Assembly: GCA_022703645.1 (NCBI GenBank) | Contig: JAKLDG010000001.1 | Coordinates: 338,814 to 402,813 of the forward strand | Reading direction: 5' to 3' | Length of the DNA stretch: 64,000 bases | Source: Patescibacteria group bacterium | Lineage (GTDB): Bacteria; Patescibacteriota; JACPGU01 | Part shown: positions 7,161 through 10,070 of the stretch, in pieces | How the letters are laid out: every line of letters begins with the position of its first letter | Numbering within the stretch: position 1 is the first letter of the stretch | Position numbers and translations under genes: made by a program | The notes under the pieces: model-generated | Database searches by the model: none | Told to the model about the DNA's origin: nothing | What the model saw: only the letters and a program-made list of their open reading frames with translations

Positions 7161-10070
7161 CTATCTCACAAAATTTACCAATCGATTTTTGACGTAAATT
7201 ATTTTTTTATAGTTTGTTGAAATTTCCTTGAATTTCTCCGTATCTTGAATGACTTTCAATGCGTCTTCCTCGCTCGCATCAAAAGGCATCAGAATATTAC
7301 CGCGGTGTTTGCCGTTTTCTTGAATTACTATTTCAATCATATCTTCTTTTATTTTTTCCGGGTCGTGTTTTGGCCAAGTAAATTTTCCGCTAAAAATACT
7401 TTCTTCAAATCCGAATTGTTGCCAGATTTCCTCCGCGATATGAGGGCAAATAGGAGATAGAAGCAGAATCAAAACCATGTATGGCTGCGGGTAATTATAT
7501 AACAGATCTTTTTTGCTAATTAAAAAGTTGGTAAATTCCATTAATGTCGATACGAGAGTGTTTAAGTGCAGGCGATCCAGATCTTCATTAAATTTCTTGA
7601 TTGTTTTATGTGTCATCACTTCCAGTTCCGTTTCTCCAATTTCAAAAGAATCGGTAATTATTTTTGCCGGATCTTTTTCTTCAACCCGAGGCGCAATTTC
7701 TTGGCCAAGATTCCAGACTTTATTTAGAAATCTCGAAACACCCTCTATTCCTTGGCTGCTCCATGCCGCATCTTGCTCGAAAGGACCGATGAACATTTCA
7801 TAAGCGCGGGCGGTATCAGCACCGTATTTTTCGACAATTTCATTCGGGTTTACTACATTTCCAAGGGATTTACTCATCTTTTTCCCATCTTCTGCTAATA
7901 TCATTCCATGATTAATTCTTTTGGCATAAGGCTCAGAAGTTGGCACAAGCCCAAGATCATGAAAGAAAATATTCCAAAATCTAGAATAAAGCAGATGAAG
8001 CGTGGTATGTTCCGGTCCGCCCTCGTAAATATCCACCGGCATCCAATATTTCAACTTTTCAAAATCAGCGAACTGTTTGTCATTATGAGGATCGATGTAG
8101 CGCAAGAAATACCATGACGAACCTGCCCAGTTCGGCATAGTATCTGTCTCTCTTACAGCAGGTCCATTGCACTTTGGGCAAGTCGTATTTACCCAGTCTG
8201 TAATCTTTGCAAGAGGGGATTGCCCGTCCTCGGTTGGTTCGTAATTTTCCACTTCAGGCAATAGCACAGGCAATTGATCTTCCGGTACAGCAACTTCACC
8301 GCAATTAGGACAATATACAATTGGGATAGGCTCGCCCCAATAATGTTGGCGTGAAAATATCCAGTCGCGCAGATGGTAGGTGGTTATAAAATCACCAAGC
8401 TTCTCATCTTTTAATTTTTGGGTAATCTTTTTTCGAGCTTCCTCAGAGCTTAATCCGGTAAAATCTTGCGAATTGATTAGTACACCATCTCTGGTATACG
8501 CCGGGATTTTCGCGCTCATTTTTTCCTGCCAGATGCCAACCTCGGCATGCGTCATATTAGCATAATTCAATTGCGATTCATCAAGCCAAATCACATCGTG
8601 GTCATCTTTTTCTTTTTGCGAAATATCTTCTTGTGTGTGGTCGACTAATTCAAATAGCACAGCAGTGGTATAAGAAATTCGATTTAAATCTTTGTGATTA
8701 GCAAAATACTCGGTTCGCGTTTGACCGAAAAGAACCCTGTCTAATTTTAAGTTTGTAAACCCAGTTTCTTCGGCAACTTCTCTTTTTGCAGCAGTTACCA
8801 CGTCTTCGCCTTCTTCAATGCCACCCATTGGAAAAGTCGTCCAATCAAAGTTTTTCCATTTAAGTCCAAGATATTTTCCAGTTTTTGGATCGCGAACTAT
8901 GGCATGAATATTTTTTCTTTCAACGGTCTTTTTACCCTCAACTGGCGGGTTTCTTTCATCAATAATATTTGGTACGACTACTTCTTCGATTTTAATTCCA
9001 TATTTAACGGCAAAAGCATAGTCGCGTGTATCGTGAGCGGGAACTGCCATGATAGCGCCTGTACCATAATCTGCAAGCACATAATCAGCAACCCAGACCT
9101 CTACTTTGCGTCCATTTATAGGGTTTATAGCAGTAATACCTTCTAATTTTACGCCCGTCTTTTCCTTATCCTCAACCATTCTTTCAATATTTGACTTTTT
9201 CTTTGATTCATTAATGTATTCCTTGACCTCTTCTAAATTCGAGATTCTATCTTCTAAATTCTTTATGTATCCCGATTCCGGTGCCAAGACAATATATGTA
9301 CAACCAAACAACGTGTCTACCCTAGTAGTGAAAACCTTTATACTAGATTCTAAATTCTTTATTCTAAATTCTATTTCGCTTCCTTCAGATTTTCCTATCC
9401 AGTTTTCCTGCATGAGTTTTACTCTTTCCGGATAATCAACATTTTTTAGCCCTTCGAGTAACTTATCTGCATAAGCTGTAATACGCAACATCCATTGATC
9501 AAGTTCTTTTTTACTTGCGGCAGTTCCGCATCTTTCACATTTTTCATCGATTACTTCTTCATTGGCTAGCCCTATTTTGCAGCTTGGACACCAGTTAATC
9601 GCCATTTTCTTTTTGTAAGCAAGGCCATTTTCATAAAATTTTAGAAAAAACCACTGTGTCCATTCGTAATAAGCCGGATCAGTAGTATCGATTTCGCGAG
9701 ACCAATCAAAAGAATAACCAAGACTTTTTTGTTGTTTCGTAAAATTTGCAATGTTTTGAGCGGTAGCAACCGACGGGTGGATTTTATGCTTTATTGCGTA
9801 GTTTTCAGTGGGCAGACCAAAAGCGTCCCATCCAACCGGAAGCATCACGTTGTAACCCTCGAGCCTTTTCTTGCGCGCAATAATATCAGAAGTAGTCTGA
9901 CCTCGAAGATGCCCCATATGCAGACCATCTCCGGATGGATAATTGAACTCAAACAACATATAGAACTTTGGTTTTTTATCAAAGTCTTTCGCATGATATA
10001 GATCGGGAATCTTTTCCCAGATATCCTGCCATTTTTTTTCGATTTCGTGAGGATTGTAGTTGGTTGACAT
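7161..10070 (-). CDS. leuS: leucyl-tRNA synthetase carrying an inserted Nudix hydrolase domain
   Basis: HMGH and KMSKS class I motifs, editing-domain TTRVDT...GTGAIMAVPAHD; ~160-aa insert with Nudix box GGIEEGEDVVTAAKREVAEETGF after VKYGIKIEEVV; 969 aa. Confidence 0.9.
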   Translation of the reverse strand: MSTNYNPHEIEKKWQDIWEKIPDLYHAKDFDKKPKFYMLFEFNYPSGDGLHMGHLRGQTTSDIIARKKRLEGYNVMLPVGWDAFGLPTENYAIKHKIHPSVATAQNIANFTKQQKSLGYSFDWSREIDTTDPAYYEWTQWFFLKFYENGLAYKKKMAINWCPSCKIGLANEEVIDEKCERCGTAASKKELDQWMLRITAYADKLLEGLKNVDYPERVKLMQENWIGKSEGSEIEFRIKNLESSIKVFTTRVDTLFGCTYIVLAPESGYIKNLEDRISNLEEVKEYINESKKKSNIERMVEDKEKTGVKLEGITAINPINGRKVEVWVADYVLADYGTGAIMAVPAHDTRDYAFAVKYGIKIEEVVVPNIIDERNPPVEGKKTVERKNIHAIVRDPKTGKYLGLKWKNFDWTTFPMGGIEEGEDVVTAAKREVAEETGFTNLKLDRVLFGQTRTEYFANHKDLNRISYTTAVLFELVDHTQEDISQKEKDDHDVIWLDESQLNYANMTHAEVGIWQEKMSAKIPAYTRDGVLINSQDFTGLSSEEARKKITQKLKDEKLGDFITTYHLRDWIFSRQHYWGEPIPIVYCPNCGEVAVPEDQLPVLLPEVENYEPTEDGQSPLAKITDWVNTTCPKCNGPAVRETDTMPNWAGSSWYFLRYIDPHNDKQFADFEKLKYWMPVDIYEGGPEHTTLHLLYSRFWNIFFHDLGLVPTSEPYAKRINHGMILAEDGKKMSKSLGNVVNPNEIVEKYGADTARAYEMFIGPFEQDAAWSSQGIEGVSRFLNKVWNLGQEIAPRVEEKDPAKIITDSFEIGETELEVMTHKTIKKFNEDLDRLHLNTLVSTLMEFTNFLISKKDLLYNYPQPYMVLILLLSPICPHIAEEIWQQFGFEESIFSGKFTWPKHDPEKIKEDMIEIVIQENGKHRGNILMPFDASEEDALKVIQDTEKFKEISTNYKKIIYVKNRLVNFVR
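8490..8975 (-). other. Nudix-fold domain inserted within leuS (approx. residues 366-527)
   Basis: Nudix box GGx5Ex7REVxEETG present; flanked by LeuRS segments conserved with E. coli (…SKYGL / GVLFNSGEF…). Confidence 0.65.

Follow-up and report, generated by a model that had tools for sequence, protein, structure and literature searches.

A Nudix hydrolase domain nested in the leucyl-tRNA synthetase of a Patescibacteria group bacterium and its relatives

The leuS gene of a Patescibacteria group bacterium (GenBank assembly GCA_022703645.1, contig JAKLDG010000001.1) encodes a bacterial-type leucyl-tRNA synthetase (LeuRS) that carries a whole Nudix hydrolase domain within its CP1 editing domain. 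The gene lies in a stretch of 64,000 nucleotides (positions 338,814 to 402,813 of the forward strand), here called the window, to which all coordinates refer. An initial annotation, made from the sequence alone, had placed a complete Nudix domain gained within LeuRS at 8490-8975 (residues 366-527); the insert as defined by alignment with the Thermus thermophilus enzyme (Tth) spans 8502-8975 (residues 366-523). The gene and its parts are as follows, with the basis of each call in brackets.

7161..10070, minus strand: leuS, bacterial-type leucyl-tRNA synthetase of 969 residues, host of the insert (TIGR00396, 1h3n match, AlphaFold2 model)
9909..9920, minus strand: HMGH form of the HIGH class I signature, residues 51-54 (motif position; H51 and H54 invariant in alignment A1)
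8976..9407, minus strand: N-terminal part of the CP1 editing domain, residues 222-365 (PF13603 profile positions 1-146 on residues 222-371)
9312-9329, minus strand: T-rich editing motif TTRVDT, residues 248-253 (motif position)
9030-9065, minus strand: editing motif GTGAIMAVPAHD, residues 336-347 (motif position)
8502..8975, minus strand: nested Nudix hydrolase module of 158 residues, residues 366-523, at insertion ‘site B’ (Tth alignment)
8757..8825, minus strand: Nudix box GGIEEGEDVVTAAKREVAEETGF, residues 416-438 (exact fit to GX5EX7REUXEEXGU)
8679..8711, minus strand: X-loop and family signature EYFANHKDLNR, residues 454-464 (Tyr455 lies 17 residues after the box)
8376..8501, minus strand: C-terminal part of the CP1 editing domain, residues 524-565, restarting at AYTRDGVLINSQDF (Tth alignment)
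7866..7880, minus strand: KMSKS loop, residues 731-735 (motif position)

The host synthetase and its nested module

The leuS open reading frame (ORF) runs through its 969 residues with no internal stop and no N. Its product scored 972.5 bits against the TIGR00396 leuS_bact model (cut-off 548.4), matched T. thermophilus LeuRS (1h3n) at E 6e-221 and was modelled by AlphaFold2 with a predicted local distance difference test score (pLDDT) of 87.4 and a predicted TM-score of 0.76. The PF13603 editing domain is recognized at 207.7 bits, its match being interrupted by the Nudix segment, and the HMGH, TTRVDT, GTGAIMAVPAHD and KMSKS motifs all lie where the initial annotation had put them. In alignment A1 the HIGH and KMSKS signatures are invariant, as are the editing residues T248, T249, R250, D252, T253, H346 and D347 (the AHD motif being residues 345-347), and across Nudix-bearing LeuRS the HIGH, KMSKS, T-rich and AHD motifs are retained in 92-95% of proteins. 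Each feature of bacterial LeuRS examined was found, with the exception of the non-universal leucine-specific domain before KMSKS: the query passes from residue 727 to 731 where Tth passes from 580 to 637, Tth residues 581-636 being gone. KMSKS comes straight after ..ILAEDGK (7866-7895, residues ~727-735), and it does likewise in related LeuRS of the candidate phyla radiation (CPR). Since Mycoplasma mobile LeuRS also lacks the leucine-specific domain and has a tetrapeptide in its place (PMC3643597), this absence is no bar to membership of the LeuRS family, and the host is predicted to be an otherwise normal LeuRS that should still be able to aminoacylate and edit.

Query residues 4-365 align with residues 3-362 of Tth 1h3n and residues 524-727 with Tth 376-580, so that the 158 inserted residues occupy the place of a 13-residue CP1 loop in Tth; the E. 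coli LeuRS alignments stop at the same place (query 2-366 with chain 22-381), in agreement with the annotated insert of some 160 residues relative to a contiguous E. coli enzyme. The Pfam NUDIX family PF00293 matches residues 407-506 with 46.9 bits (gathering threshold 21.1, E 3.6e-12), and the Nudix box, annotated from the outset as canonical, fits the consensus exactly, the metal-binding Glu residues included. A six-frame translation of the window contains only two strict Nudix boxes, both within Pfam-significant Nudix domains, one in LeuRS and the other in a NusB-Nudix fusion described below. A structure prediction, which the initial annotation had proposed as a check, gave the module a pLDDT of 96.1 and an alpha/beta/alpha Nudix fold, predicted to form independently of the host; by profile threshold, exact box and predicted fold the module belongs to the Nudix superfamily.

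The module is a member of a distinct Nudix family, nested in a surface loop of CP1. Downstream of the box this family carries the signature [YF][FY]AxHKxxNR, in which the position of Tyr455 is Y or F, and it also has an N-terminal PxxIDxxNPP extension. Outside the box R385, K460, N463, R464, E487 and W495 are near-invariant throughout the family, and the strict box is found in 113 of 159 family modules, a pattern of conservation that would be expected from selection on catalysis. Residues 366-523 are most likely a complete, independently folding and catalytically active Nudix pyrophosphohydrolase.

Set beside the LeuRS structures of T. thermophilus (1H3N/2BYT) and E. coli (4AQ7), the window protein has the same domain order and the same catalytic and editing signatures and aligns from end to end; it differs from Tth in the 158-residue Nudix domain that replaces the 13-residue CP1 loop and in having no leucine-specific domain. 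In a survey from 2026 that covers 2.7 million classified domains (PMC13114784), the editing domain of LeuRS is reported as ‘insertion-exclusive’ and is never counted as a host; the CP1 domain of the window LeuRS, itself the host of an insertion, contradicts that count. Two known architectures come close. NadM-Nudix (2QJO), an NMN adenylyltransferase/ADP-ribose pyrophosphatase, is an end-to-end fusion that is ADP-ribose-specific and unrelated to translation, whilst the isoleucyl-tRNA synthetase with a GNAT domain (NCBIfam NF040702, a curated exception family) is likewise a synthetase with a second, unrelated catalytic domain; unlike the latter, the Nudix domain of LeuRS is nested in CP1, occurs in up to three copies and is found alongside HAD, Ham1 or alpha/beta-hydrolase domains. 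No curated model for LeuRS with Nudix exists among the 18,950 NCBIfam models scanned, and no account of a Nudix-containing LeuRS came up in full-text literature searches on Nudix enzymes, tRNA synthetases and CPR/Patescibacteria. The components are known; the architecture has not been previously described. It provides a natural doubly nested domain, a Nudix fold in CP1 in a Rossmann fold.

Distribution and history of the module family

An exhaustive phmmer search with a 170-residue segment against 1.84 billion cluster representatives returned 466 matches, 190 of them at E ≤ 1e-10, and CPR LeuRS with this Nudix family make up the majority of the 150 best representatives. The design recurs in more than a hundred lineages of ultra-small bacteria. 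Sorted by their flanks, the module instances in these best 150 proteins comprise 103 at site B (that of the window, after LeuRS residue ~365), 18 at site A (the start of CP1, residue ~210-240), 3 at site C (residue ~590-640), 31 in small free-standing proteins or fragments and 11 in other hosts. About 124 of the 135 fused instances are thus in LeuRS, the others being one confirmed prolyl-tRNA synthetase (ProRS) and a few unclassified hosts. A pattern scan of GTDB, with one genome per species, gave 9 loci, each of them a LeuRS in which the module has the same junction, from Patescibacteria/Paceibacteria and Saccharibacteria metagenome-assembled genomes (MAGs) and one MAG labelled Nanoarchaeota; the insert that the initial annotation had suggested looking for in related CPR genomes is present there at the same site. 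A single-sequence search of a 5.8-billion collection found only P0001, long LeuRS-Nudix proteins being apparently missing from that collection. The family is nearly confined to LeuRS of CPR/Patescibacteria (and at least one DPANN archaeon) or to free-standing proteins of 155-170 residues from the same lineages, and public records name the fused proteins only ‘leucine--tRNA ligase’ or ‘leucyl-tRNA synthetase’.

The ProRS, P0106 (L084 2906-4837), is of archaeal/eukaryote type; its module, from the same family, separates the anticodon-binding domain from the C-terminal one, and no other synthetase apart from LeuRS is a confirmed host in the best 150 proteins. The Nanoarchaeota-labelled contig (L007, 254 kb) encodes a bacterial-type LeuRS (2930-5830) whose Nudix module is at site B and whose C-terminal domain is of a different kind, reminiscent of the bacterial-type LeuRS with archaeal tRNA-binding domains already described (PMC4005665). 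An archaeal tRNA-splicing endonuclease gene, EndA (853-1365), adjoins leuS on this contig, which we therefore take to be genuinely archaeal, and this DPANN case implies that the whole architecture has been transferred between domains of life. In four family members (P0038, P0109, P0121 and P0133) Trp takes the place of invariant Gly residues (EETWY, WWVE), which suggests that they come from genomes with UGA=Gly (code 25) read with UGA=Trp and that the architecture may extend to Gracilibacteria/Absconditabacteria.

The free-standing homologues of 155-170 residues are real genes, and a search with the family profile added 104 free-standing members, 68 of them of a variant type. Two 157-residue free-standing Nudix proteins from Parcubacteria MAGs (P0164 and P0168) bear the NCBI name ‘leuS’, presumably an annotation error carried over from Nudix-bearing LeuRS. 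A further group of free-standing proteins, 272-281 residues in length, consists of a degenerate CP1 remnant around a strict-box Nudix domain (P0249, P0233, P0238, P0242, P0254, P0259, P0265 and P0268-P0270; loci L085/L086/L087 6001-6846). Their editing residues are gone, TTRxDT having become ExEELI and AHD having become AH[N/I]. P0249 is a complete gene, on contigs of up to 663 kb, of a 26%-GC, standard-code organism often met with in metagenomes of the human gut (Hadza); a gene-call fragment or code-25 truncation is ruled out by its ribosome-binding site, its TAA stop and the stops that flank it in every code. The idea that it sits on a megaphage is unsupported, with no match in INPHARED or IMG/VR and with neighbours on contigs of up to 1.3 Mb.

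Host and insert have not simply diverged together. Their pairwise identities correlate weakly (Spearman 0.21, 276 pairs), and in the nearest relatives, loci L001-L003, the insert is 71% identical to that of the window and the LeuRS body 47-56%, with P0089 as the opposite case, at 57% and 35%. The strict-box lineage to which the window module belongs is found at sites A and B, and a second lineage, in which the Glu of Gx5E is Q and the Arg of RE is A, M or T whilst the three metal-binding Glu are kept, occurs free-standing and at sites A and B. Strict co-divergence from one ancient insertion event finds no support, given the correlation of 0.21 and the presence of one lineage at both sites; placement appears to have been repeated or ancient. 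Some LeuRS (P0002, P0004, P0006, P0011, P0013, P0034, P0038, P0072 and P0140) have two or three Nudix modules, distributed over as many as three sites, second tandem copies belonging mostly to the variant-box lineage (Gx5E with Q, Arg of RE lost). In most multi-copy LeuRS, identity among the copies of a single protein is 19-44%, as against 40-66% between a copy and its nearest relative elsewhere, which typically occupies the corresponding position in a different protein. The low identity within proteins rules out recent intragenic duplication, and, because copies are nearer to their same-position relatives than to each other, the multi-copy state is taken to be old, with its own lineage per position.

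Nudix modules are not the only enzymes nested in these synthetases. Scanned against Pfam, 28 further unassigned segments of at least 90 residues in the Nudix-bearing LeuRS set comprise 10 alpha/beta serine hydrolases (PF06821), 4 HAD phosphatases and one each of Ham1/ITPase (E 9.5e-60), a DUF559 endonuclease-like domain, a divergent second Nudix and a weak nucleotidyltransferase-like match, about 10 segments matching no Pfam family, about six of which are copies of a single domain of ~130 residues. This recurring ‘KTIETR’ insert (‘..KTIETR..NPEE..’) has no sequence match in Pfam or the PDB. The other nested domains are located at sites A and B and at two positions in the C-terminal half, and LeuRS that carry them include P0014, P0052, P0099, P0043, P0071, P0046, P0067, P0040 and P0065, and the locus L090 3001-6993. 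In P0043 (1330 residues) LeuRS, Nudix, the ~130-residue domain and Ham1 form one uninterrupted gene on its contig. LeuRS in these lineages is a general carrier of nested enzymes; the census behind this statement was seeded with the Nudix module and covers Nudix-bearing LeuRS.

An essential translation enzyme of ultra-small, genome-reduced organisms thus doubles as a carrier of whole accessory enzymes. As the proteins are annotated only as leucine--tRNA ligase, metabolic reconstructions of CPR and DPANN miss the Nudix, Ham1, HAD and esterase activities within leuS. The insertions also show where LeuRS is permissive, which could be of use in engineering.

Candidate functions of the nested Nudix domain

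Among characterized proteins the module comes nearest to ApnA hydrolases, RppH and decapping enzymes. The top structural match of the module is 2azw, at 18% identity, a free-standing MutT/Nudix protein of Enterococcus faecalis from structural genomics which, having no assigned function, gives no functional transfer. The best characterized matches are the Ndx1 Ap6A hydrolase (score 14.4), DDP1/DIPP1 (14.0), the Rv2985 ApnA hydrolase (13.9) and the lupin diadenosine tetraphosphate (Ap4A) hydrolase (13.8), the margins of ApnA-type neighbours over other Nudix classes being small, and among PDB sequences the family profile comes closest to lupin Ap4A hydrolase (3.4e-8), followed by AvrM14, a decapping effector (1e-7), with which it aligns through the K..R motif. 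A Tyr in the X-loop some 16-18 residues after the box goes with diadenosine-polyphosphate activity (Dunn et al. 1999, cited in PMC5389931), and Tyr455, at +17, supplies this marker of ApnA hydrolases. Against the NCBIfam RppH models (PRK00714) the module reached 25.8 bits, with a cut-off of 116 and coverage of the box only, and it fell below the cut-offs of the other equivalog models as well. Identity to Nudix Ap4A hydrolases and RppH (lupin 1F3Y/1JKN, T. thermophilus Ndx1, Mycobacterium tuberculosis Rv2985, human NUDT2 and E. coli RppH) is only 16-23%, and the module differs from them in its own [YF][FY]AxHKxxNR signature, its PxxIDxxNPP extension and its nesting in another enzyme. These likenesses, drawn from sequence and fold comparison, point to a substrate with a polyphosphate chain (ApnA, 5′-triphosphate or capped RNA), and a place in the ApnA-hydrolase subfamily is a tentative suggestion.

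Enzymes of the Nudix, Ham1 and HAD classes represent classic ‘house-cleaning’ activities (Bessman 1996, cited in PMC5389931). The reading that we favour, with middling confidence, is that LeuRS carries, in cis, an autonomous house-cleaning pyrophosphatase, as opposed to a LeuRS-specific proofreading device. LeuRS serves in this reading only as the carrier: its CP1 domain and nearby surface loops accept whole-domain insertions, and in these reduced genomes they have repeatedly gained small hydrolases (Nudix, Ham1/ITPase, HAD phosphatase and alpha/beta serine hydrolase). The Nudix module would act alone as a Mg2+-dependent house-cleaning enzyme on a compound linked through a nucleoside 5′-polyphosphate, for which Ap4A/ApnA dinucleoside polyphosphates are the best guess and a 5′-polyphosphate or cap-like RNA end the second. 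Nesting would enforce co-expression with an essential adenylate-forming enzyme, and adenylylated by-products may be cleared locally, with the chemistry of aminoacylation and editing unaltered. This autonomous reading is preferred because Ham1 and other enzymes are nested in the same LeuRS, Ham1 having no evident link to leucylation, and the three insertion sites, the one to three copies, the free-standing genes and the weak correlation between host and insert speak for it too. Two observations weigh against it: the near-exclusive choice of LeuRS among fused hosts, which a pure carrier model leaves unexplained, and the 272-281-residue proteins, which keep a dead CP1 remnant around a strict-box Nudix. 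Both hint at a functional partnership of CP1 and Nudix.

The initial annotation had implied such a coupling to LeuRS, putting forward as possibilities that the embedded pyrophosphohydrolase acts on aminoacyl-adenylate or Ap4A side products, or on RNA 5′ ends. In its fuller form, which we consider doubtful, a CP1-placed Nudix domain would cleave Ap4A, Ap3A or Ap4N, which arise when ATP attacks enzyme-bound leucyl-adenylate, or would destroy mis-activated adenylates, adding a third checkpoint to LeuRS. Synthetases are the main source of Ap4A, the hosts are nearly all synthetases (LeuRS and the ProRS P0106), the structural neighbours are ApnA-like with Tyr at +17, and the CP1-remnant proteins have stayed joined to Nudix despite their lost editing residues. 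Set against this, LeuRS is reportedly not among the strong Ap4A producers, which are said (in work from 1982 attributed to Goerlich et al.) to be LysRS, PheRS and AlaRS. Aminoacyl-AMP is an acyl-phosphate, not a pyrophosphate, and hence an untypical Nudix substrate; action of the module on aminoacyl-adenylate finds no support. The implied coupling is further weakened by the other hydrolase domains, unrelated to the module, that this LeuRS family harbours, the Ham1/ITPase, HAD, alpha/beta-hydrolase and DUF559 domains having no obvious link to adenylate chemistry, and the module itself occurs at three sites and free-standing.

Two bolder proposals can be put forward together, as a speculation to which we attach a similarly low likelihood. 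In CPR bacteria and some DPANN archaea LeuRS may be a multi-enzyme chassis for synthetase-anchored damage control, with one to three nested Nudix modules, Ham1/ITPase, HAD phosphatase and alpha/beta-hydrolase acting together on nucleotide damage, or Nudix and CP1 may form a new kind of hydrolytic checkpoint that targets adenylylated by-products or the 5′ end of tRNA or other RNA. Were the checkpoint real, the proteins with a dead CP1 and a Nudix domain would be its excised, trans-acting form. Were the module an ApnA or cap hydrolase, the production of an alarmone by synthetases would be tied to its removal in one polypeptide, and the debate over Ap4A as ‘by-product versus signal’ would become directly testable in a minimal organism.

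Rather less probable is an RppH-like RNA 5′-end pyrophosphohydrolase or decapping enzyme that uses LeuRS/CP1 as an RNA platform and acts on 5′-triphosphate or Np4-capped tRNA(Leu) precursors or other RNAs. The likeness of the family profile to AvrM14 bears on this idea, but the RppH models match over the box only and far below their cut-off, cleavage by RNase P leaves mature tRNA with a 5′ monophosphate, and the co-inserted unrelated enzymes count against it too.

We consider it improbable that the module is a non-catalytic passenger, whether a structural, regulatory or ligand-sensing Nudix fold or a decaying remnant. Non-enzymatic Nudix domains are known (PMC5389931), and a sizeable variant subclade, to which the second tandem copies belong, has lost the Glu of Gx5E (now Q) and the Arg of RE. 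The window copy, however, has a perfect box, as do most family modules; the variants keep the three metal-binding Glu, and at L001-L003 the insert is more conserved than its host.

A chimeric assembly, gene-calling error, intein or transposed cassette has next to no probability: although an IS200/RAYT-like ORF lies directly downstream of leuS (6579..7040) and one related LeuRS has a DUF559 endonuclease-like insert, the frame is open and the identical 969-residue protein is found on 8 independently assembled contigs (ENA and JGI; 7 of them 0.2-1 Mb), which excludes a mis-join and bears out the initial view that this is no annotation or assembly artefact, the same junctions recur in the 9 GTDB genomes, the absence of a GC step and of direct or inverted repeats flanking the segment rules out recent foreign DNA or a mobile cassette, and an intein is ruled out by the absence of a Hint/LAGLIDADG match in Pfam and by junctions (..EEVV/VPNI.. 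and ..KIP/AYTR..) without the Cys/Ser/Thr nucleophiles or terminal His-Asn motif of inteins.

A second Nudix fusion and other features of the window

The initial annotation had also pointed to a second Nudix fusion, to NusB, close to leuS.

5307..6152, minus strand: NusB-Nudix fusion protein of 281 residues, from a separate Nudix family (NusB 118 bits, NUDIX 71 bits)
4527..5219, minus strand: rnc, adjoining the NusB-Nudix gene

The fusion is real, but its Nudix domain belongs to a different family and is 30% identical to the LeuRS module, so that it constitutes a parallel case and not a copy; the reading of the LeuRS module as a copy of its neighbour is ruled out by the same figure. All but one of the best 120 database matches combine NusB and NUDIX (270-336 residues; Microgenomates, CPR2 and Komeilibacteria), their annotation naming NusB alone. 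A Saccharibacteria genome (L009 6594-8250) has nusB and the Nudix gene as two distinct ORFs that overlap, in the same order leuS...nusB-nudix-rnc, and the fusion is therefore considered to derive from a conserved gene pair. This parallel, CPR-wide NusB-Nudix suggests a broader habit of linking Nudix enzymes to the machinery of RNA and translation.

An Rfam scan of the whole window gave no matches. The ORF directly downstream of leuS (6579-7040, minus strand) is one of two IS200/RAYT-like Y1 transposase ORFs in the window, the other (20896-21183, minus strand) being apparently truncated; they have a common N-terminal ‘LFGEIVDG.M.LN’, and rpmF lies between the former and nusB. TGA is rare as a stop in the window, ending 2 of 52 ORFs, and 46501-57534 (plus strand) holds a single ORF of 3677 residues whose N-terminal part includes a hydrophobic segment, as is typical of giant CPR surface proteins.

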